A stretch of 8,747 nucleotides of DNA from a virus. Lineage: Duplodnaviria > Heunggongvirae > Uroviricota > Caudoviricetes. Positions 1-8,747 of this stretch are shown piece by piece. The stretch lies in the IMG/VR virus record IMGVR_UViG_2778261069_000010; one strand, 5' to 3'. The notes under the pieces are model-generated. The model was not told the DNA's origin and did no database searches. It saw nothing but the letters and a program-made list of their open reading frames with translations. Position numbers and translations under genes: made by a program. Positions within the stretch are counted from its first letter, which is position 1. Each line of letters begins with the position of its first letter.

Positions 1-369
1 GTGAAGGCTAATGAAACAACCGAAGCAATATTGATTATCGCAGGACTTTGGATGATAAAAAAAGTCAATTACATTTCTATTGAGATATTCAATGAAACAT
101 TCGACAACTTACGTTCTCGAGTGGAGTCCGCTTTCGATAAGTATTTAAAGTTTGAAGAAAATAAAGAAATCAAAGATAATGCAGATAGTATTAAGAGTAG
201 CATTACAGGTTTGATTGATAAAGCTAAAAAAAGGATGAGAACTGTTAAATATCTCGCATCAGCCATGTTTTATGGAGGCCTTATTTACGTTGGATATAAA
301 CAGTTCCCAGTCTTTTTTGAAAAATCGGCAGTAAATCTATTTTATTTTTTATGCCATACTATAAGCTAA
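1..369 (+). CDS. Hypothetical protein, probably 5'-partial (frame open to window edge); AT-rich moron-like gene convergent with Q
   Basis: At least 122 codons stay open in markedly AT-rich DNA, where stop codons are frequent by chance. The stop at 367-369 overlaps the 3' end of Q by 21 bp. The product has hydrophobic stretches (AILIIAGLWMI, YLASAMFYGGLIYVGY) between K/E-rich segments. No family recognised. Confidence 0.45.
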   Translation: MKANETTEAILIIAGLWMIKKVNYISIEIFNETFDNLRSRVESAFDKYLKFEENKEIKDNADSIKSSITGLIDKAKKRMRTVKYLASAMFYGGLIYVGYKQFPVFFEKSAVNLFYFLCHTIS

Positions 370-705
370 CATTGCTAAACAGCCGTCAACAAACCCCATG
401 GCAGTCTGCAATTCCTTCCTAATTGTGCCATCTGAACATCTTCTCTTCTTGGCAATAGTGCGTAATGAGATACCAATAACAAAGTGAGCTATGAGCAGCT
501 CATATTCCTCTGGTTTATACTTTCGCAACCGAGCCACACAACCGTCTATCATGATGCCTTCATCATCATCACACTGGAGACGTGACTTTTTACCGTGTGG
601 TAAAAGTCCCTTGAAACCAGCCGCTATCGGCTGCCAGTCCACACCACTATTTTCTGCTGCAGCCCATGCTCCCCAGCGGTCCAATACTTCATACATATCA
701 CGCAT
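349..705 (-). CDS. Q: Phage late-gene antitermination protein Q (Q family as found in E. coli lambdoid prophages, QuuD/QuuQ-like)
   Basis: Product has the LDRWGAWAA...GFKG...DDD...C.ARL pattern I recall for prophage Q antiterminators. ATG at 705 is preceded by GGAGAAAG (6-nt spacer); the track start at 720 is a TTG. Position at the distal end of the nin-like region is as expected. Confidence 0.8.
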   Translation of the reverse strand: MRDMYEVLDRWGAWAAAENSGVDWQPIAAGFKGLLPHGKKSRLQCDDDEGIMIDGCVARLRKYKPEEYELLIAHFVIGISLRTIAKKRRCSDGTIRKELQTAMGFVDGCLAMLAYSMA

Positions 706-722
706 CAACTTTCTCCACAAAA

Positions 723-1718
723 TCAGGCCAGCACGCCAATTGCCAGCGCACGATCGATAAAACGAAATATCAGCTCCAGCTGGGAGCCATACTTCTCTTC
801 AAATGCCACGGTATCCGCATGCAGCTCGTCGTGATGCTTTCTGCACAAAGGCAACACAAAGAGGTCATGCGCTTTTGTACCCATTCCCCCCTGACCGTGG
901 CCTATCAGGTGGTGGGGATCATCAGCAGGCTTTCCACAACATGCACACGGCTGTGTCTTAACCCAGCGCGTGTACTTTTCATTAACCCAGCGGCGACGTT
1001 TTGGGCGTAACATAAAAGACTCCGGCGACTCCGGATCCACTTTCAGCGCCAGCACCTTTTTCGCCTTATCCTGGATGATGCTGGTGGCAGGAACCGAAGG
1101 CACAAGGTCACTTTCCCGGGTGACAGACGGCACAACAGGCTTCGGTAATCTCAGTGCCTTACGGGCAGCACTTTCCGGTAAGGCATCCGCCAGGTCATTA
1201 CGAATCAGCCACCAGCACAGTTCCGGCATTGTCACAACGTGACTATCATCAAAACCGAGATCCCGACGCACAACAGACAACACCCAGCGGGCACAGTTAT
1301 CCGTTGCCATTGATTCCAGCCGTTCCGTGAACTGATCGCGCAGCTGGTTATCGCAGTGCCAGCACAGACGGATTGCGCCCGGAGCGTGTCGCATTGTGGT
1401 CATGTTCTCGCTGTGCCAGTCGGAATGAGGCCACTGGCAGCCTTTTTCACGAAGTAACCAGCTTTCAAGACATTCCACGCCACCAGCACGACGGATCACT
1501 GCCTCATTGCGGAACACGGCCCGAACGGCAGGATCATCCGCCAGCGGTTGTGATGCCGCCGGAACGGCACCACTGGCGAAAGATGAATAACGTTCTGGCT
1601 CAGGCTCCAGCAGGACACGCCCCTGCATAAACAGGGGCATCAACTCTGAACCTGGCCTGAACAATACGATCCCCATACGCGGGGCAATTTCAGGGGTCAG
1701 TAGTGCTCTCACGGTCAC
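723..1718 (-). CDS. DUF968-like protein (YdfU-like), C-terminal Cys/His cluster suggestive of an HNH-like zinc-binding nuclease fold
   Basis: 331-codon ORF immediately upstream of Q, as YdfU sits next to Q in the Qin prophage. C-terminus contains CACCGKP...HHLIGHG...CRKHHDELH. GTG start at 1718 is 1 nt from the upstream stop; the exact start is uncertain. Confidence 0.6.
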   Translation of the reverse strand: MTVRALLTPEIAPRMGIVLFRPGSELMPLFMQGRVLLEPEPERYSSFASGAVPAASQPLADDPAVRAVFRNEAVIRRAGGVECLESWLLREKGCQWPHSDWHSENMTTMRHAPGAIRLCWHCDNQLRDQFTERLESMATDNCARWVLSVVRRDLGFDDSHVVTMPELCWWLIRNDLADALPESAARKALRLPKPVVPSVTRESDLVPSVPATSIIQDKAKKVLALKVDPESPESFMLRPKRRRWVNEKYTRWVKTQPCACCGKPADDPHHLIGHGQGGMGTKAHDLFVLPLCRKHHDELHADTVAFEEKYGSQLELIFRFIDRALAIGVLA

Positions 1719-1719
1719 C

Positions 1720-2562
1720 TCAATGAACGGTATCGAGCAGCTTTAACAGCTCAGGGAATCGGGATTCGAAGAAATGCGGCTGCGTCTCGCGCGGATTTGC
1801 GGGACTGGTGATGTTCTTGCCGAACATGCAGCCTTTCGCCGTCAGCGACCAGAATTTTTTGATGTTGTTAATCGCAGTGCGGCTGTATCGTTCACGTTGT
1901 TCAACGATCCCCAGCTTCGCCATCTGGTGATATGCCTGATTAGCTGTCAGGCGGATACCATACTGCTTCAGCAGTGCACTCAGTGACAGCGTGGGGCGGC
2001 TTGAGCCATCAGGCGCGTCAGCAGGAGCATCAATAGCATAGCGCGGTGCCAGATTCGGTAAGCCAACAGCTTCCTGGAGTTTCTGACAGGCACCAAGCAC
2101 TGATGAGTTAGACAGATTTAACTCCCGGCGCATAAAGTCCAGCAGAATCACGCCAGCCTGCATCTTGTCAGCAGCCTGCCCGGATAATTTTTCCGGTGTG
2201 CTGGTTACCATGTCGAAAGTACGGATCACCTTCAGATGGAATGACGGGCTGATCCACATTGCATAGGCATACACCAGTTCCTTACAGACATATGTTCCGC
2301 CATTCCGCCCTTCTATTTTACTGACAGGTTTACTACCCAAATTTTGGGTAGTTTCATTGAATGAACCGACACCCAGATTTTGGGTATCGATCAATTCCTG
2401 AACCAGCTCAGTAATCTGTTGGCTAGAAAGAAACTTTCCCGGCTCCTTGGTTCTGGCATTTGCACCAGATGCTACTGCTGCGCGATGCAGATCGTTCAGG
2501 CTGTAACGCCCATAAGCATCACGACGAACTTCAATACCATCAATGACCATCAGATTATTCAT
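1720..2562 (-). CDS. KilA-N domain protein (antirepressor/Bro-like DNA-binding protein)
   Basis: N-terminus MNNLMVIDGIEVRRDAYGRYSLNDLH ... GTYVCKELVYAYAMWISPSFHLKVIRTFD matches the KilA-N pattern. ATG at 2562 is preceded by GAGGAG (9-nt spacer). The track start at 2595 would overlap the rusA 3' end. Confidence 0.7.
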   Translation of the reverse strand: MNNLMVIDGIEVRRDAYGRYSLNDLHRAAVASGANARTKEPGKFLSSQQITELVQELIDTQNLGVGSFNETTQNLGSKPVSKIEGRNGGTYVCKELVYAYAMWISPSFHLKVIRTFDMVTSTPEKLSGQAADKMQAGVILLDFMRRELNLSNSSVLGACQKLQEAVGLPNLAPRYAIDAPADAPDGSSRPTLSLSALLKQYGIRLTANQAYHQMAKLGIVEQRERYSRTAINNIKKFWSLTAKGCMFGKNITSPANPRETQPHFFESRFPELLKLLDTVH

Positions 2563-2581
2563 ACTTCGTTTCTCCTCTTGA

Positions 2582-2971
2582 TCAGGCAGCTGCACCCGCC
2601 GTTTTCTCGTACTTACTGATAGTGATCTCGACCTTCCCTTCCGGGATAACCGGTCCCCATTCCACCAGCATTCTTTTCACCTGACTGTCGTCTTCCCACA
2701 CCCCCGCGTGGGTCAGGGCGTCAAACAGCGCCTTGTTATAGTTGTCCAGATCGCGGATCCTGTTATCCGGAGGAAACAACACGATCTCCACTGAAGCAGG
2801 TGCCGACGTTGGTTTCGGCAGACGACGTAACTGTTCAACTATTGCTGCGCACGCCGCGCTCTGAAATTTTCGCCCCGCCGCGCTTATCAGGCTCTTACCT
2901 GCAAACGCCCCTTTGTTGGGGTGTCGCCAGTACGTGTTCACGCTGGGCGGAAAAGGCAGGATAAGCTTCAT
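2582..2971 (-). CDS. rusA: Crossover junction endodeoxyribonuclease RusA (Holliday junction resolvase)
   Basis: Product carries LPFPPSVNTYWRH ... RDLDNYNKALFDALTHAGVWEDDSQV, aligning with the catalytic DLDN region of E. coli RusA. ATGA overlap with the upstream gene. Confidence 0.85.
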   Translation of the reverse strand: MKLILPFPPSVNTYWRHPNKGAFAGKSLISAAGRKFQSAACAAIVEQLRRLPKPTSAPASVEIVLFPPDNRIRDLDNYNKALFDALTHAGVWEDDSQVKRMLVEWGPVIPEGKVEITISKYEKTAGAAA

Positions 2972-3294
2972 ACTTTCAAGCCCCTCTCATGTAACCAGTG
3001 AGTTGCACGCAGCCTGGCGTTTTCCTCACCGGCAAGCAGTGCGCGGATAATCCCGACCGTCTCGCTGTCGTCGTCCTTCACTGCGGTATGAAGCGTTATC
3101 CCCCGGGCCACGCCACGCTTTATTGTGATGACGCCTTTTTTCTCCAGTGCGCGAAGATGCTCCACCGCTGCATTCACCGAACGGTATCCCAGCATGGTTG
3201 CCACCTCCTGATTGGTTGGCGGGAAGCCACGTTCTTTCTGGTAAGAAATCAGCATATCCAGCACCTGCTGCTGGCATTGAGTTAACGTCGTCAT
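2968..3294 (-). CDS. LexA N-terminal DNA-binding domain-like protein (winged helix, no S24 peptidase domain)
   Basis: MTTLTQCQQQVLDMLISYQKERGFPPTNQEVATMLGYRSVNAAVEHLRALEKKGVI aligns by eye with the LexA N-terminus (LTARQQEVFDLI...[35 protein letters not shown]). Start at 3294 shares one A with the upstream stop (TAATG). The track start at 3327 would overlap the upstream gene. Confidence 0.6.
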   Translation of the reverse strand: MTTLTQCQQQVLDMLISYQKERGFPPTNQEVATMLGYRSVNAAVEHLRALEKKGVITIKRGVARGITLHTAVKDDDSETVGIIRALLAGEENARLRATHWLHERGLKV

Positions 3295-3773
3295 TAAGCC
3301 CCCACGTAATTGCCTGGCAGATACCACTCTTCACCCGATGCCACGCACCTTTTACTTTTGCGTACACACCGCTCACGGCGCGCCAGAAAATTGTTTCGTT
3401 CTGACTGGGAGTGGCTTTCACGGAATGCCTCCATCCACACCGTTGCAGCACGACGAAATAAACCTCTTGACTCCAGATCTTCTGCCTGCTGAATCAGGCG
3501 CAAAATCACCCGCTGATCATTAGTGCCGACGTAGCTTTTACTGGCCACACTCATATGCTTCAGCACCGGCTCAGGTGGCAACACAGCCTTGCGAGAAAAA
3601 TGCCGGTGTGTTTTGCCTTCACTGCGATAAGCGACACGTCTGCACTGGCGTAACTTACTGGTCGTATTCAGTACACGGGGACGTGGAAAGTATGCAAACG
3701 CGTTCGCAATATCACCGGTCGTACATCCAGGATTGCTTTCAATGAATTTTTGAATCTCACTCATCAGGCTCAT
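3294..3773 (-). CDS. Hypothetical regulator with C-terminal PerC-like motif (LESRGLFRRAATVWMEAF)
   Basis: ATG at 3773 is preceded by AGGGGGTG and lies 2 nt after the upstream stop. The C-terminal segment resembles the G-L-W-R-R-A-A..W motif of the PerC/Pch family, recalled from memory and not searched. It occupies the slot where a P/DnaC-type helicase loader usually sits. Confidence 0.5.
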   Translation of the reverse strand: MSLMSEIQKFIESNPGCTTGDIANAFAYFPRPRVLNTTSKLRQCRRVAYRSEGKTHRHFSRKAVLPPEPVLKHMSVASKSYVGTNDQRVILRLIQQAEDLESRGLFRRAATVWMEAFRESHSQSERNNFLARRERCVRKSKRCVASGEEWYLPGNYVGA

Positions 3774-3775
3774 GA

Positions 3776-4582
3776 TCACCCCCTGAATCCTGCCGGGATC
3801 TGGCTGTAGTCCACATTGTTGTAACTGGCTTTGAAGTACGGGTCTTCGCATCTGGCCGCCGATACCGCAGGAACTTCCCAGGATTCTTCGAAATGACGAT
3901 CCGGACCAAAGAACGTGACAGCCTGTTTCACAAATTGTGTGCCGCTGTTACCCATCGCAGATACCCAGCCCGCGTAGCGTTTCACACCTTCCAGCATGGT
4001 TTCGGGGTTTACCCCCTCGTTCAAACGGGCTTTCCAGGCTTTGAAGGCCGCTGATTTTGAATTGCCACCAGCACGTTTGGGATATGCCAGCCATGCCTGC
4101 TCAAACTCCGGAGAGTATTCCGGTCGGTTTGAACGAACTCGCACAGACTCATCAGCAGATGCACCAACAGCTATTGGTTCATTGACTGGTTCAAAAGAGT
4201 GACTGGTTCTGGGTGAATCTCCTGCACTACCCCCTGGTGCAACTCCTGCACTACCTGGTGAATTTGCTGCACCAGATAGTGAATTATTTGCACTACCCCC
4301 TAGTGAATCTCCTGCACCATCAAGATGAAGAAGATAGATATTACTTGAGTTACCTTTTTCACCTTTCCTGGTGACTTTTTTTACCAGCCCGGACTCACAG
4401 AGGGCCGCAATATGATTCATCACAGAACGTTTGCTAATCTCGCACTGATCAGCGATATGCTGATAGCTGGGCCAGCACTCGCCCTGATCGCTGGCATTAT
4501 CAGCCAGCTTAATCAGAACCAGTTTTCGCAATGGATTTCCCACTCGAATTTTCATCGCTTTAACCATCAGCTCCATACTCAT
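3776..4582 (-). CDS. Replication initiator, lambda O-like: N-terminal HTH (replisome-organizer type), Gly/Ser-rich linker encoded by the iterons, distinct C-terminal domain
   Basis: N-terminus LRKLVLIKLADNASDQGECWPSYQHIADQCEISKRSVMNHIAALCESGLVKKV resembles the lambda O N-terminal DNA-binding region. The linker GGSANNSLSGAANSPGSAGVAPGGSAGDSP is encoded by the direct repeats at 4213-4325. ATGA overlap with the upstream gene. Confidence 0.7.
   Translation of the reverse strand: MSMELMVKAMKIRVGNPLRKLVLIKLADNASDQGECWPSYQHIADQCEISKRSVMNHIAALCESGLVKKVTRKGEKGNSSNIYLLHLDGAGDSLGGSANNSLSGAANSPGSAGVAPGGSAGDSPRTSHSFEPVNEPIAVGASADESVRVRSNRPEYSPEFEQAWLAYPKRAGGNSKSAAFKAWKARLNEGVNPETMLEGVKRYAGWVSAMGNSGTQFVKQAVTFFGPDRHFEESWEVPAVSAARCEDPYFKASYNNVDYSQIPAGFRG
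4213..4385. repeat. Putative origin of replication: five 21-24 bp iterons (core GTGAATCTCCTGCACTACC) followed by an AT-rich stretch, inside the O-like gene
   Basis: Direct repeats start at 4213, 4237, 4258, 4279 and 4303 (gtgaatctcctgcactacc / gtgcaactcctgcactacc / gtgaatttgctgcaccaga / gtgaattatttgcactacc / gtgaatctcctgcaccatc). AT-rich DNA follows at 4326-4385. Same architecture as ori-lambda within O. Confidence 0.55.
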
Positions 4583-4815
4583 GCAGCACCTCCGAGATGC
4601 TTCATGTTTTTTCCGGAGCGAAAGGCTATAAGCGGCATACTGACGCGGTAATTACGGCCCAGCGGTTCACAAATCACTTTCTGACATTCACGGTCAACCA
4701 GGCTAACACGTAGAACATGCCCTGCAGGCGTGGTGTACCACTGCCCAACTGTAGGAATTGATGTTTTTTTACGCTGAAGTAAACGGCGAATATTGAGGCT
4801 CAACGGATTAAGCAT
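4579..4815 (-). CDS. Small hypothetical protein, DUF4222-like
   Basis: 78-codon ORF. ATG at 4815 is preceded by GGAGGG (7-nt spacer) and overlaps the upstream stop by 8 nt. The W-Y...G..L.V.....C........Y pattern resembles small DUF4222 prophage proteins; low certainty. Confidence 0.45.
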   Translation of the reverse strand: MLNPLSLNIRRLLQRKKTSIPTVGQWYTTPAGHVLRVSLVDRECQKVICEPLGRNYRVSMPLIAFRSGKNMKHLGGAA

Positions 4816-5644
4816 GACGATGCCCTCCGCTGATATTCAGGAGACGGTGAATATGAAAATTAGCCTTATCCACCAAACGGATACGTTCAGCCTGCAAGTT
4901 AAGAAGGGTTTCTACCAGAACCTGATGCGCCTGCGGATCCGAAAGAGTTACCTTGCGCAGAGCACGTAGTGCAGTTGTTACATAACTGAGTTTATGTAAG
5001 TCTTCATCATTCAGACGAGTGAGGGCTGGGACAGTAGCCATGATGGCAGCCTCCTTGATCGGTGAAATACTTCCACCACCGGAAACGCCAATTTCGCTGG
5101 TGGTGAACTGAACGGGGTTGGCGTAACCGGTGATCAAGGAAACCGGCGCATCTTTCGATGCCCCCGCCCAGCCCACCATAACTTTGATGTGAGCAAATGC
5201 GGACGATAAAAAAGACGCTGGCGCGTCATATATCGCCTTGATCAATTCCAGGACGCCAATCCCGGCACCCGCTTTATAAGGTGCCTGAACAGTGTAACGT
5301 CCCGGAATGGCAGAATCAATGTGCTGGTGGTCCTTCACACTCAACAAAATCACGCCTGAATTTCCACAAAGGACTAAAGCACTCATGCGGGTAGTCTTTG
5401 CGAAGATAGATAACGCGCTGTGTTTCTGGCTCCCAACGAATAACATGAACATAAAGTCCTCTTCCGTCACGAAACCAGCGGTTAAGTTCCTGCACAACTC
5501 GCCCCCCACAGTCAGGTAAAGTTCTCTGTGGTTACTTACAGCCAGGTGATTTGGTAATCTGCATTCATGCCGTAACAACAGGTGTTCAGCGACGCTGACC
5601 ACCAGCTGTTGCGACAAACGGTTATTTGCCGTTAAACTGTTCAT
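4808..5644 (-). CDS. Hypothetical early-operon protein (278 aa), function unknown
   Basis: Long ORF with ATGA start/stop overlap to the upstream gene and GGAGA upstream. Normal GC content. No Walker A motif; no family recognised by eye. Confidence 0.55.
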   Translation of the reverse strand: MNSLTANNRLSQQLVVSVAEHLLLRHECRLPNHLAVSNHRELYLTVGGELCRNLTAGFVTEEDFMFMLFVGSQKHSALSIFAKTTRMSALVLCGNSGVILLSVKDHQHIDSAIPGRYTVQAPYKAGAGIGVLELIKAIYDAPASFLSSAFAHIKVMVGWAGASKDAPVSLITGYANPVQFTTSEIGVSGGGSISPIKEAAIMATVPALTRLNDEDLHKLSYVTTALRALRKVTLSDPQAHQVLVETLLNLQAERIRLVDKANFHIHRLLNISGGHRHA

Positions 5645-6204
5645 GCGTTAGTTTCTCCACAGACACAAAACGCCACGACGCCCGGAGCTGCACACTCGCG
5701 GGCGTCACTCTTTTCTGGAGCGCAAAAGATTTTGTAGACCAGTGCTGCATGCTCCTGGAGCTTCGAAATTGACAGATACAACTCATCATTAATTGCTGTC
5801 TGCTCGTGTGGCTCCACTACCCCATCTTCGATTGCCGAACGAATCTGCTTTGAGTAACTCCCGATCTGTTCGATGACTTCCAGCAGGCGCTGGTTGATAT
5901 CGGCGTTCTCTACTTCCTCAATTTCAGGAAGCGATACAAACACCCCACCAGCAGACTGTGCGACAGCATCCGCAATGTAGTGAGTGCCAGCCGCGCGCTG
6001 TAAAATCATTGCCCATCCCAGCGGGAAAATCTGATCGCCATCTGCACGAAGGCGGTTGAATAAAGCGTTCTCTGTTACATCCAGCCACTCAGCAGCTTCA
6101 GCGTAACCCCCCGGCAACGCCGCGATAGTTTTTCTGACAGCTTTCACGTACCACTCAGGCTGTTTTTCTACTTTCCAGTGATGCTTACCCACGGTTAGCC
6201 TCAT
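5641..6204 (-). CDS. CII-like / YdaT-family regulator (inferred)
   Basis: Second gene of the rightward operon, directly after a YdaS-type Cro-like gene. Contains an HTH-like segment (GGYAEAAEWLDVTENALFNRLR). Family assignment rests on synteny and loose resemblance, not a verified match. Confidence 0.5.
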   Translation of the reverse strand: MRLTVGKHHWKVEKQPEWYVKAVRKTIAALPGGYAEAAEWLDVTENALFNRLRADGDQIFPLGWAMILQRAAGTHYIADAVAQSAGGVFVSLPEIEEVENADINQRLLEVIEQIGSYSKQIRSAIEDGVVEPHEQTAINDELYLSISKLQEHAALVYKIFCAPEKSDARECAAPGVVAFCVCGETNA

Positions 6205-6235
6205 CGTTCTGTGGTTAAAAATTGAAGGTGTTCTG

Positions 6236-6436
6236 TTAATCTTTCGGATAGATATCCGGTCTTAAGTCAGATTTCGTAATTGCACCTGACGTGCATTGCT
6301 CAAGTTTTTTAGCCAGCACAAAACTGGCTTTTTTATAACCATTGAAAACCAGCCGTAAGTAGCCTGGTGTTGAGCCAACTTTGCCAGCCAACTCGGCCTG
6401 CTGTTCTTTGGTTAAAGAGTCCCAATACGCTTTCAT
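6236..6436 (-). CDS. Cro-like HTH transcriptional regulator (YdaS/Cro family)
   Basis: 66-aa product MKAYWDSLTKEQQAELAGKVGSTPGYLRLVFNGYKKAS...LRPDIYPKD with a typical HTH. ATG at 6436 is preceded by GGAGGT (8-nt spacer). Divergent from the CI-type repressor. The track ORF 6236-6739 is an upstream over-extension. Confidence 0.7.
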   Translation of the reverse strand: MKAYWDSLTKEQQAELAGKVGSTPGYLRLVFNGYKKASFVLAKKLEQCTSGAITKSDLRPDIYPKD

Positions 6437-6526
6437 ACAATATGTACCTCCGGTATACACATTACATGATTGAGATGAACCTTCAAGATACTTGTACCTT
6501 AACGGTACAAGGGTTTTAATTTCGTT
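6437..6526. promoter_or_regulatory. Divergent immunity control region (OR-like): operator repeats plus candidate pRM-like promoter for leaderless cI
   Basis: Perfect 8-bp inverted repeat CTTGTACC-ttaac-GGTACAAG at 6491-6511; ATGTACC at 6442-6448. Candidate -35 TTGTAC (6492-6497), 17-bp spacer, -10 TTTAAT (6515-6520), placing +1 at or near the cI ATG (6527) with no SD. The promoter for the cro-like gene was not confidently located. Confidence 0.5.
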
Positions 6527-7201
6527 ATGAAAACAGTCCATGACATCCGGCGGTCTAACGCCAGAAAACTGAGAGATGGTGTTGGCGGGAATTCTTCCTT
6601 TGCCACCATGATTGATCGCGAGCCAACCCAGACCAGCAGGTTTATGGGAGATGGTGCAACTAAAAATATCGGTGACAGCATGGCACGGCACATCGAAAAA
6701 TGTTTCGACCTGCCTGTCGGATGGCTTGATCAAGAACACCAGACAACGAACATCACAAAAAAACCTGATGTTTCAATCACTAACAAACAAATAACGTTAG
6801 TCCCTGTCATATCATGGGTACAGGCCGGAGCATGGAAAGAAGTTGGCTATTCTGAGGTTGATTTGAGCACAGCAGAAACTTATCCCTGCCCTGTACCCTG
6901 TGGCGAAATGACTTATATCTTGCGGGTGATTGGTGATTCAATGATTGATGAATACCGCCCGGGAGATATGATTTTTGTTGATCCTGAAGTACCTGCCTGC
7001 CACGGTGACGACGTTATTGCATTGATGCACGATACAGGTGAAACCACCTTTAAAAGGTTGATAGAAGACGGAACACAACGTTATCTCAAAGCATTAAACC
7101 CAAACTGGCCAGAGCCTTACATTAAGATCAACGGTAATTGTTCCATAATTGGTACTGTGATTTTCTCAGGAAAACCAAGGAGATACCATATTAAAGCCTA
7201 A
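6527..7201 (+). CDS. cI: CI-type phage repressor (HTH N-domain, S24 LexA-like autopeptidase C-domain), P22 C2 / lambda CI-like
   Basis: C-domain matches by eye: ISWVQAG (Ala-Gly cleavage site), GDSM (catalytic Ser), DMIFVDPE, TTFKRL (catalytic Lys), LNPNWP, NGNCSIIGTVI. These parallel P22 C2 (ISWVSAGQW, GDSM, ILVDPE, TFKKL, LNPQYP, NGNCKIIGVV). Confidence 0.9.
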   Translation: MKTVHDIRRSNARKLRDGVGGNSSFATMIDREPTQTSRFMGDGATKNIGDSMARHIEKCFDLPVGWLDQEHQTTNITKKPDVSITNKQITLVPVISWVQAGAWKEVGYSEVDLSTAETYPCPVPCGEMTYILRVIGDSMIDEYRPGDMIFVDPEVPACHGDDVIALMHDTGETTFKRLIEDGTQRYLKALNPNWPEPYIKINGNCSIIGTVIFSGKPRRYHIKA

Positions 7202-7213
7202 TCAATATTTATG

Positions 7214-7236
7214 AACCTGCTTCGGCAGGTTTTTTT
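7214..7236 (+). terminator. Rho-independent terminator downstream of cI
   Basis: Stem AACCTGC / GCAGGTT with a TTCG tetraloop, followed by a T-run (7230-7236), 13 nt after the cI stop. Confidence 0.7.
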
Positions 7237-7240
7237 ATAC

Positions 7241-7268
7241 TTGACAATGTACCCTTGAGATACATAAT
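7241..7268 (+). promoter_or_regulatory. pL-like sigma70 promoter with overlapping operator repeats (OL-like)
   Basis: -35 TTGACA (7241-7246), 16-bp spacer, -10 CATAAT (7263-7268). Two copies of AATGTACCC (7246-7254 and 7265-7273, 19-bp period) overlap the spacer and -10, as expected for repressor operators. Confidence 0.55.
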
Positions 7269-7376
7269 GTACCCAGATGAAACAGCGAACAGGCAGGATG
7301 CCCACGAAGTAGCCGCCCGGGGCATATGAAGACCGGGATGATTCGTTAGCAACAAAAAAGCGCCGTACCGGACACT

Positions 7377-7389
7377 TCGCTCTTTAACA
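7377..7389 (+). promoter_or_regulatory. boxA-like antitermination element (rrn/nut type) in the pL leader
   Basis: CGCTCTTTAACAA closely matches the rrn boxA consensus GCTCTTTAACAA and lambda nut boxA CGCTCTTA. It lies about 100 nt downstream of the predicted pL start. No clear boxB hairpin was identified by eye. Confidence 0.45.
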
Positions 7390-7435
7390 ATCTGATCCCC
7401 ATCAACAAGTAATTGATAACTTGAGGAAGTGTGAA

Positions 7436-7678
7436 ATGCACAAAACAGAACCAAAAATCGTCGCGCCAGGCTACACAGATGAGGAAATTTACGAGTGGAT
7501 GACAAAGAAGCTGGCTGCTATAAACCAGCTTCGTGAAGTGCAGTCTTATCGTCAGGAAACAATAGACTCCTTAAAAAAAACTAGATCAGGAGATCACATC
7601 TTTATCGCAAGAATCTACTCTAGATATTGTTCATACAAATTAGGATCCCATTCTTTTTCGTCAAAGTTATCAAAGTGA
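7436..7678 (+). CDS. Small hypothetical ORF, first ORF of the pL transcript; 3' part runs into the AT-rich island and may be truncated or fused
   Basis: ATG at 7436 is preceded by GAGGAAG (6-nt spacer). The first ~45 codons are in normal-GC DNA; the remainder lies in AT-rich DNA and overlaps the 3' end of the convergent gene 7615-8049. Not arginine-rich, so not N-like. Confidence 0.3.
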   Translation: MHKTEPKIVAPGYTDEEIYEWMTKKLAAINQLREVQSYRQETIDSLKKTRSGDHIFIARIYSRYCSYKLGSHSFSSKLSK

Positions 7679-8049
7679 TAAATTTGAGATCTCCAGTCTA
7701 AATTATCTAAAAAATCCTTAGCTCTTTTACTCATTTTATCAAACGTCAATTCATCCTGAATAGAAAGAATAAGATCATCAAACTCCATTTCATTAATTTT
7801 TTTTGGTGTCCAATGATGTTTCATAAGAATAAGGTGAATCAACGCATTTTTCCCTTTCAATTGATTATAGGGTGTGCTGAATTTCTTTCTATGCTCATAT
7901 AGTACAAGATCAAGCAAAGTCAGGAATGCGGCTCTTGATTCAACCTTAACTTTATCGATTGTTTGAACTATTCCACTAGTATTAATACCACGACACTTTC
8001 CAACATTTTCACAGTGGGATGCATACAGGTCACGTATATAAACAGACAT
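7615..8049 (-). CDS. Hypothetical protein (144 aa) in an AT-rich island, antisense to the pL operon; candidate accessory/exclusion gene
   Basis: ATG at 8049 is preceded by AAGGAAAAG. Composition is sharply AT-rich from about 7566 to 8050. No family recognised. The frame remains open upstream to 8313 in GC-rich DNA, but the RBS and composition favour the 8049 start. Confidence 0.55.
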   Translation of the reverse strand: MSVYIRDLYASHCENVGKCRGINTSGIVQTIDKVKVESRAAFLTLLDLVLYEHRKKFSTPYNQLKGKNALIHLILMKHHWTPKKINEMEFDDLILSIQDELTFDKMSKRAKDFLDNLDWRSQIYHFDNFDEKEWDPNLYEQYLE

Positions 8050-8065
8050 TCTCTTTTCCTTTTGC

Positions 8066-8112
8066 GTTGTTGGGGATACCCAGATTAACCGAATCCTTGT
8101 TGTTGGGGAATA
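8066..8112. repeat. Two direct repeats GTTGTTGGGGA (8066-8076, 8102-8112), 36-bp period, immediately upstream of the start of the 7615-8049 gene
   Basis: Exact 11-bp repeat with similar flanks (gttgttggggataccc / gttgttggggaataacc). Function unknown. Confidence 0.4.
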
Positions 8113-8335
8113 ACCAGGTCCACCTCGCCTGATGTGGCTAAAAGCAGGCACATAACAGCTAAGTATTTTCAACCAGAGAGAATCCTTAGCGTTGTGGTGA
8201 ATGCGGCTCAGCGCACGCGGGTTAAGGTTGAGGCTGACAGTCGACCTTCTGTGGATACCCACCCGCCTAGTGTGCAACCTTCGCCAGGCACCGGGAGGCA
8301 CCCGGCACCACAACTTTATGCTGTGTGTAGTCCTG

Positions 8336-8383
8336 GCGGTACCAGCTTGTACCCTTGCTTCCGGCTGGTACCGCTCTTTTTAC
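8336..8383 (+). terminator. Strong stem-loop followed by a U-tract: candidate tL-type intrinsic terminator (or structured RNA element)
   Basis: Perfect 11-bp inverted repeat GCGGTACCAGC (8336-8346) / GCTGGTACCGC (8364-8374) with a 17-nt loop, followed by TCTTTTTAC. The loop contains TTGTACCC, the operator-like motif. Confidence 0.45.
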
Positions 8384-8517
8384 AAAACAGAGAAGAGCAT
8401 CACCGGACGACGGGCTCATAACCCAATCCATCCGGGCGGCTGCCACCACAGGTGTTCTTCTCTGTTTTGTGGAGAAACTAATCGGCCTTGCAGGGCCGAT
8501 ATGATGAGGAGCAGCAA

Positions 8518-8747
8518 AATGGCTAGCGAACGCAGTACTGATGTGCAGGCATTTATCGGGGAGCTGGACGGCGGCGTATTTGAAACCAAAATCGGCGCAG
8601 TTCTCAGTGAAGTCGCTTCAGGTGTGATGAACACGAAAACCAAAGGTAAGGTCTCACTCAACCTGGAAATCGAACCATTTGATGAGAACCGTGTGAAAAT
8701 CAAACACAAACTCTCATATGTTCGCCCGACTAACCGCGGGAAAATTT
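8518..8747 (+). CDS. Hypothetical early-left operon protein, 3'-partial (runs off window end)
   Basis: ATG at 8518 is preceded by GAGGAG (7-nt spacer). The frame is open for 76 codons to the window edge (MASERSTDVQAFIGELDGGVFETKIGAVLSEVASGVMNTKTKGKVSLNLEIEPFDENRVKIKHKLSYVRPTNRGKI). Not in the ORF track because it has no stop in the window. No family recognised. Confidence 0.6.

Follow-up and report, generated by a model that had tools for sequence, protein, structure and literature searches.

The closest described system to the locus reported here is the lambdoid phage LLS (Zheng, Casjens, Davidson, Amundsen and Smith 2025, PMC12315714), which has no recombination (Rec) module, carries an early-left operon with yfdP, yfdQ and yfdR, and has the Chi octamer GCTGGTGG as its commonest octamer with TGCTGGTG second, the same pair as in phage P1. 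Growth of LLS was lower on recB and recC hosts and normal on recD, lambda being unaffected, and Chi-stimulated recombination was demonstrated; at least eight Chi in the active orientation were counted in 62 of 68 other Rec-less lambdoids (PMC12315714). Bobay, Touchon and Rocha (PLoS Genet 2013, PMC3784561) had found Chi over-represented in recombinase-less lambdoids, with a median observed/expected ratio of 3.1, and avoided in lambdoids with a RecBCD inhibitor; Chi was concentrated between the replication genes and terminase, nearer the origin in Rec- elements. Here we analyzed a stretch of 8,747 nucleotides (hereafter the window, at its full length) from the IMG/VR virus record IMGVR_UViG_2778261069_000010 (Caudoviricetes), and found a dense Chi cluster in its early-right (PR) operon. 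The module family to which the window belongs probably has neither a Rec module nor a RecBCD inhibitor, and instead is loaded with Chi between its origin and right cos end and exploits the host RecBCD. The cluster is biologically meaningful, yet the principle is not new (it was published in 2013 and 2025, and the module is present in long-sequenced phages), so that the window is a textbook instance and not a discovery.

A count of exact GCTGGTGG octamers on both strands of the window gave nine, all within open reading frames (ORFs); the minus strand has six and the plus strand three. An earlier reading made from the sequence alone (the sequence-only reading) had listed eight; all eight are exact octamers with correct coordinates and strands, and only the plus-strand copy at 5323-5330 had been overlooked. 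The several-fold excess over the E. coli average claimed there amounts to one Chi per 0.97 kb, about 4.7 times the host density. E. coli K-12 contains 1008 Chi, one per 4.6 kb (PMC12315714), and the same source agrees with the statements in that reading on the host average (roughly one per 4.5-5 kb) and on the lack of Chi in wild-type lambda.

Three null models were compared with the observed count. At the K-12 density 1.9 Chi are expected in the window (Poisson P(≥9) = 1.6e-4), and 200 dinucleotide-preserving shuffles averaged 0.32 Chi, with no shuffle above 2. In a codon-aware null, synonymous codons were permuted among identical amino acids in the 11 minus-strand genes, by which the proteins and the pooled codon usage were retained; it expects 1.22 sense and 0.22 antisense Chi (1.4 in total) against the six and three observed, and none of 5000 permutations attained six sense or three antisense Chi. 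The Chi cluster is real, and its excess is well past chance under all three nulls. Among all octamers of the window GCTGGTGG ranked first, by strand-specific and two-strand counts alike, and the second was TGCTGGTG, which overlaps it by seven bases.

The sites might be a by-product of coding, if the proteins need Ala-Gly-Gly, Cys-Trp-Trp or Leu-Val at these places and the DNA motif itself is unselected. All nine Chi are inside ORFs, and the 1.2 sense Chi of the codon-aware null mean that one or two sites are expected in this way. The Cys-Trp-Trp site at 1209 has nearly no synonymous freedom, and LLS has a top-strand Chi (37243, in its DUF968/HNH gene) at the projected position of this site; the projection is from a neighbouring colinear blastn high-scoring segment pair (~72% identity), the site itself being outside the aligned segments. 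However, the permutations did not reach the observed numbers of either strand, and all three Ala-Gly-Gly sites share the spelling GCT-GGT-GGN, one of the 64 synonymous ways in which their first eight bases can be written. Among the LLS Chi compared only 37243 coincides with a site of the window, which argues for repeated independent gains. As to reading frame, three of the six sense sites are GCT-GGT-GGN, one is TGC-TGG-TGG and two are CTG-GTG; the share of Chi in the CTG|GTG frame is 68% for E. coli ORFs and 41% for P1 (bioRxiv 10.1101/2021.07.08.451572), and because of the low share here the window Chi are not of the codon-driven kind. Protein constraint probably accounts for one or two Chi, with 1209 held by the protein, and it is very unlikely to account for the cluster.

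By megablast, positions 727-8747 of the window aligned at 94-97% identity with the early region of SfV, Ayreon, 2H10, cdtI, SfIV and several Stx2-converting phages, always reversed. The lambdoid architecture (cI / cro-cII-replication-nin-Q order) was confirmed by Pfam and by synteny with SfV, Ayreon and TUM1886, and we assign the window on these grounds to the early-right (PR; replication/nin) operon, with its flanks, of a temperate lambdoid phage that belongs to the SfV/Ayreon/2H10/cdtI module family. Relative to the standard phage map the window is reverse-complemented, so that its minus strand corresponds to the top strand of the phage.

Conservation of the sites was examined in eight relatives with 90-96% identity over the aligned part, with the octamers of 723-6204 as reference. 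Of the 64 aligned cells, 59 (92%) had the Chi octamer unchanged, compared with 71% for all octamers of this region, and nine random octamers equalled this conservation in 2.4% of draws (P about 0.024), which is suggestive of Chi being more conserved than random octamers. Whole-genome counts of Chi (top/bottom strand) were 17/5 in SfV, 14/4 in Ayreon, 12/5 in cdtI and 9/3 in 2H10, and the prophages had 15/5 (TUM1886), 13/3 (20A24) and 20/4 (GF66.1) over 31-34 kb of each. All of these have at least eight top-strand and at most six bottom-strand Chi, the limits that we used for the class per genome; the 8.7-kb window alone has 6/3. In SfV, 13 of the 17 top-strand Chi lie at 26.9-36.1 kb of 37.1 kb, that is, in the last 10 kb. 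The counting method was validated on the LLS record, where it gave 20/3, matching the published value.

In the relatives the lysis genes, cos and terminase are located beyond the low-coordinate (Q) end of the window, and the cos position of the window's own phage was taken from them. RecBCD coming from the right cos end moves from low to high window coordinates and reaches the six minus-strand Chi from the 3' side, which is the active orientation; by the rule quoted in PMC12315714, RecBCD that enters lambda at its right cos end finds 5'-GCTGGTGG-3' of the top strand in the active orientation. The geometry proposed by the sequence-only reading, with RecBCD going from the Q/lysis side toward cI as from a cos end, was thus confirmed through the synteny of the relatives. 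Its emphasis on six co-oriented sites did not hold, since a split of six to three is not significant (one-sided binomial P = 0.25) and the bias is predicted by coding-strand composition: the minus strand encodes all PR-operon genes, and under the codon-aware null 85% of Chi fall on the coding strand. Therefore, the 6:3 strand split has no weight of its own.

A comparison with the host flanks on the same replichore, which had been suggested as a check, was run on three lysogens. The leading strand was called from the negative plus-strand GC skew of the flanks and from the K-12 gene order. The density differed from the flanks, where 1, 4 and 0 Chi were counted in 14-17 kb of host DNA; the orientation was non-discriminating, the majority Chi strand being the host leading strand in all three lysogens. 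A phage-level model gives the same match when the prophage is co-oriented with replication, and therefore orientation alone cannot part phage-level from host-level selection.

The three bottom-strand Chi, two of which are in the Ash gene just left of a group of iterons, are not predicted to be enriched by a model in which RecBCD enters at the right end only, and the published Chi model gave bottom-strand sites no role (PMC12315714). These Chi, which relatives conserve, might themselves be selected and the cluster organized around the phage origin as well as cos. If so, Chi would guard against RecBCD from both directions, for example on rolling-circle tails running either way from the origin or on broken theta forks, and the published right-end-only model would be extended. 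We consider such a two-directional arrangement doubtful and give it a low probability, because SfV and LLS have no clean strand switch at the origin. A chromosome-like polarity switch at the phage origin was unsupported also in the window, which has four top-strand and one bottom-strand Chi to the right of the origin and two of each to the left.

Amelioration by long residence in the host, which the sequence-only reading had put forward as an equal alternative, would mean that the Chi were gathered passively while the prophage drifted to the oligonucleotide and codon usage of E. coli. The module is indeed very widespread as prophage: some part of the window was matched in 4015 of 5426 complete E. 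coli genomes, mostly partially, and 83 genomes had a place covering at least 80% of it. Cryptic prophages would gain Chi as the chromosome does (Zheng et al., PMC12315714), and the majority Chi strand is the leading strand in the lysogens, as this explanation would have it. However, drift to the host composition cannot overshoot it, and the window has one Chi per 0.97 kb and the host one per 4.6 kb; the null with the module's own codon usage gives 1.4 Chi, not nine, and the frame usage of the sites differs from that of E. coli. The same Chi are found in free, functional phages, namely Ayreon (isolated on K-12), SfV, cdtI and the Stx phages. In 2H10 and PhiR29_2, moreover, lambda-like structural genes are joined to a Chi-rich SfV-type early region, and no Chi was found in the structural arm of either (about 26 kb in 2H10, positions 1-26000, and the 20 kb examined in PhiR29_2, positions 1-20000). 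Because these lambda-like arms in the same host are without Chi, the Chi content is a property of the module and not of residence in E. coli, and we regard amelioration as insufficient and extremely unlikely.

The early-left operon of all relatives examined has the order yfdP, yfdQ (DUF2303), yfdR (5'-deoxynucleotidase, YfbR-like), one or two genes of DUF551 or Eae type, and then xis and int. In the early-left operons of seven phages and three prophages carrying the module, none of Gam, Abc2, Bet/RecT, Erf or Exo was annotated, and Pfam revealed no Rec gene among the Ayreon genes. The only recombination gene of the window encodes RusA. The yfdP part at the window end, with which the LLS-type early-left gene set that relatives have instead of a Rec module begins, showed 52% amino acid identity (tblastx) with LLS 31576-31719, inside gp39 of the yfdP family (31359-31730).

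Species-representative genomes were also scanned for the replication protein, which yielded distant homologues (at most 63% amino acid identity over the full length), useful for a crude Chi census and not for site-by-site conservation. Around the Phytobacter homologue 11/0 Chi were counted in 20 kb and no recognizable Rec gene lies between cI and int, whereas the Pluralibacter locus is without Chi (0/0) and its early-left operon encodes a DUF3799 PDDEXK nuclease; this contrast is an anecdotal replicate of the correlation between Rec module and Chi. In three Pseudomonas prophages (L043, L025 and L010), the 14-21 kb surrounding the Rep homologue hold 10/0, 10/3 and 8/3 copies (top/bottom) of the Pseudomonas-type Chi GCTGGCGC, and most Pseudomonas loci with Rep homologues are not rich in it. 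The rich loci echo the MD8 result of Zheng et al.

We propose the following mechanism for the module family. The phage would be unable to inhibit RecBCD or to recombine by its own means, and its lytic growth would expose a double-strand end, either the right cos end (terminase holding the left end) or a rolling-circle tail. RecBCD would enter there and head leftward through the lysis genes, Q and the early-right operon, and each top-strand Chi would offer a moderate chance of switching it from degradation to RecA loading on the 3' strand. RecBCD recognizes a single Chi with a probability of about 20-40%. At this rate six Chi leave 5-26% of RecBCD unswitched, and 11 Chi (adding the five cos-proximal ones of TUM1886) leave 0.4-9%, so that with the Chi in series the switch would be nearly certain before the replication/immunity region is lost. 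RecA-dependent strand invasion could then lead to recombination and recombination-dependent replication, and these to the concatemers required for cos packaging; the phage RusA, whose own gene contains a Chi, would be available for the resolution of junctions.

The sequence-only reading had suggested that Chi attenuates RecBCD degradation, and its phage-serving role matches the published explanation of the class. In the strict form of this idea, Chi serves only for protection or self-mimicry: it halts degradation by RecBCD, by which fragments for the acquisition of CRISPR (clustered regularly interspaced short palindromic repeats) spacers are also cut down, and recombination is irrelevant. In its favour, the top-strand Chi stand in series from the cos-proximal lysis genes into the operon, so that RecBCD meets many of them and 5-26% of it would stay unswitched after six, and rolling-circle tails of Gam-less lambda are known to be destroyed by RecBCD (background in PMC3784561). 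However, LLS grows worse without RecB or RecC and normally on recD, and this counts against protection alone because removing a merely harmful enzyme should be neutral or helpful. That LLS growth is aided by RecB and RecC points to Chi-stimulated recombination making packageable concatemers, not merely to less degradation. The module also retains the RusA resolvase, which is sensible only if junctions form. Protection alone is hard to reconcile with LLS and is unlikely for this module.

Exploitation of host RecBCD by a Rec-less, Chi-loaded module is thus the reading that we prefer, and several points weigh against it. The use of RecBCD by the module is carried over from LLS by analogy, since RecBCD dependence is known from LLS alone, which has ~70% nucleotide identity in a few genes; the excess, conservation, linkage and placement of the sites are from the present analysis. 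The window stops inside yfdP, and the Rec-less status of its own phage is accordingly read from the relatives. The eight relatives compared for conservation are not independent lineages, which makes that test weak. The majority Chi strand coincides with the host leading strand in three of three lysogens, and relative to the codon-aware null the enrichment of the bottom-strand Chi (3 versus 0.22) is no lower than that of the top-strand Chi. Finally, one or two Chi, such as the Cys-Trp-Trp site at 1209, are likely kept in place by the protein, although the LLS stretch with the corresponding Chi is unaligned.

The nine Chi are spread through the PR-operon genes from the cII-like gene to DUF968 and are on both sides of the putative origin (Table 1). 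Seven GTGCAGGAGATTCAC-type matches were found in the window where 0.49 were expected, five of them within a 105-bp stretch; these iterons, whose arrangement resembles that in the lambda O gene, probably mark the phage origin.

Table 1. Chi sites, putative origin and genes of the window (window coordinates; relatives, the number retaining the octamer among those aligned).
Feature	Position	Strand	Context and evidence	Relatives
Chi	1080-1087	+	Antisense in DUF968/HNH gene; phage bottom strand, canonically inactive orientation	8/8
Chi	1209-1216	-	DUF968/HNH gene; phage top strand, active orientation; frame TGC TGG TGG (Cys-Trp-Trp)	8/8
Chi	1480-1487	-	DUF968/HNH gene; top strand; frame GCT GGT GGC (Ala-Gly-Gly)	8/8
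Chi	2662-2669	-	RusA Holliday-junction resolvase gene; top strand; frame G CTG GTG G (Leu-Val)	8/8
Chi	4065-4072	-	Replication-protein gene, ~140 bp downstream of iterons; top strand; frame GCT GGT GGC	6/6
Chi	5096-5103	+	Antisense in Ash-family gene; bottom strand	4/6
Chi	5323-5330	+	Antisense in Ash-family gene; bottom strand; absent from the list of the sequence-only reading	6/6
Chi	5599-5606	-	Ash-family gene, near 5' end; top strand; frame CAG CTG GTG GTC	5/6
Chi	5945-5952	-	cII-like (Phage_CP76, ymfL) gene; top strand; frame GCT GGT GGG	6/8
Five iterons, GTGCAGGAGATTCAC consensus	4213-4317	-	Inside replication gene, spacing 21-24 bp; putative phage origin	
Early-right (PR) operon	723-6436	-	cro to the gene before Q, containing all nine Chi; Pfam, synteny	
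Q late antiterminator	349-720	-	Marks cos-proximal (phage right) side; Phage_antitermQ, E = 2.6e-47	
DUF968/HNH	723-1712	-	Pfam, synteny	
KilA-N	1720-2529	-	Pfam, synteny	
RusA	2582-2971	-	Pfam, synteny	
LexA-type DNA-binding protein (LexA_DNA_bind)	2968-3294	-	Pfam, synteny	
PerC	3294-3773	-	Pfam, synteny	
Replication initiator (HTH_36/DnaD_N)	3776-4582	-	"Replication protein" or O in relatives; Pfam, synteny	
Hypothetical 78-amino-acid protein	4579-4815	-	Pfam, synteny map	
Ash	4808-5644	-	Pfam, synteny	
cII-like (Phage_CP76, ymfL)	5641-6204	-	Pfam, synteny	
cro	6236-6436	-	Pfam, synteny	
cI-type S24 repressor (Peptidase_S24, ymfK-like)	6527-7201	+	Marks phage left side of the cluster; Pfam, synteny	
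yfdP-family gene, 5' part	8519-8747	+	phrog_204, phrog_33467; aligned to yfdP of TUM1886 and SfV orf32	

Besides these features, positions 1-369 (plus strand) encode the C-terminal 122 amino acids of a phrog_5023 protein, a family with no assigned function, convergent with Q. The slot between Q and the lysis genes is a cargo slot, in which other opposite-strand genes are found in cdtI, Stx2a_1447 and the 20A24 prophage, and no phage or E. coli record matched positions 1-367 among the matches listed. Between cI and yfdP (7209-8313, minus strand) there are two ORFs; the last 143 residues of the 232-amino-acid one at 7615-8313 match phrog_5286 (annotated in E. coli TUM1886 as an ECs1072 family phage-associated protein). 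In SfV, Ayreon and 2H10 other DNA takes the place of the 7209-8313 stretch, which makes it a moron slot.

SfIV and PhiR29_2 have ymfM and another replication gene, and their homology to the window starts again at 5608; this point is 36 bp within Ash, and the Chi at 5599-5606 is 2 bp away from it. This mosaic junction might come from a Chi-stimulated exchange or merely from a conserved gene overlap, and it is a single coincidence at a gene boundary. Two module-bearing phages encode DinI, which binds RecA filaments (cdtI 26458-26706 and 2H10 26202-26450), and this is noteworthy in phages presumed to rely on host RecA. Ayreon encodes a 729-amino-acid CHAT (caspase-like) domain protein just downstream of int (26917-29106), with a gene of similar size in cdtI; it is possibly a defence or cargo gene.

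The locus illustrates a trade-off between two phage strategies, one with an own recombination system and RecBCD inhibitor and with Chi avoided, the other with no such module and a genome full of the host hotspot. For annotation, a dense Chi cluster between origin and cos leads one to expect that the phage has no Rec module. Chi-rich phages of this kind should need RecA and RecBCD of the host, and their response to defences sensing the inhibition of RecBCD may differ. Stx2- and Cdt-converting phages and Shigella serotype-converting phages carry the module too, and the recombination status of the host may thus affect their induction yield.

Compared with known systems, the module is most like LLS: both have the lambdoid gene order, a yfdP-yfdQ-yfdR operon (in the relatives of the window) with no Gam or recombinase, and Chi followed by TGCTGGTG as the top octamers. 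In the relatives, as in LLS, Chi are mostly on the top strand and crowded to the right end, with densities of one per 1.3-2.8 kb (prophages over 31-34 kb) and one per 1.86 kb, respectively. However, LLS has other immunity, replication and nin genes, with ~68-72% nucleotide identity in the cII-like and HNH genes only. It was reported without a recombination gene in the nin region, where the module has RusA, and the replication protein of the module, of HTH_36/DnaD_N type with five internal iterons, is unlike that of LLS. The Chi in the LLS cII-like gene (33367) is ~200 bp from the projected position of window 5945. Because only the Cys-Trp-Trp position appears shared among the sites compared, the two lineages probably accumulated most of their Chi independently.

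In the Rec- lambdoids without a RecBCD inhibitor (PMC3784561), Chi is over-represented between the replication genes and terminase, where the window cluster also sits. That study was statistical, covering 275 elements with strand orientation untreated, and its genome-wide density of ~0.2 Chi per kb is below the local density of the window. P1, with 50 Chi presumed to be under direct selection, needs RecBCD and RecA (Subramaniam and Smith, bioRxiv 10.1101/2021.07.08.451572). Like the window it has Chi as its commonest octamer and makes little use of the CTG|GTG frame, and the share of Chi on the coding strand is 67% in the window, 63% in P1 and 79% in E. coli. P1 differs in being non-lambdoid, with headful packaging from pac and Chi used for cyclization via the terminal redundancy instead of from a cos end. 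The lambda red gam chi+ mutants (Lam 1974; Kobayashi et al. 1982) follow the same orientation rule for top-strand GCTGGTGG, but these were single laboratory mutations rescuing a crippled phage, whereas here a natural phage carries many Chi. Judged from its sequence and its relatives, the window probably belongs to the published "no Rec module, high Chi" class of lambdoid phages.

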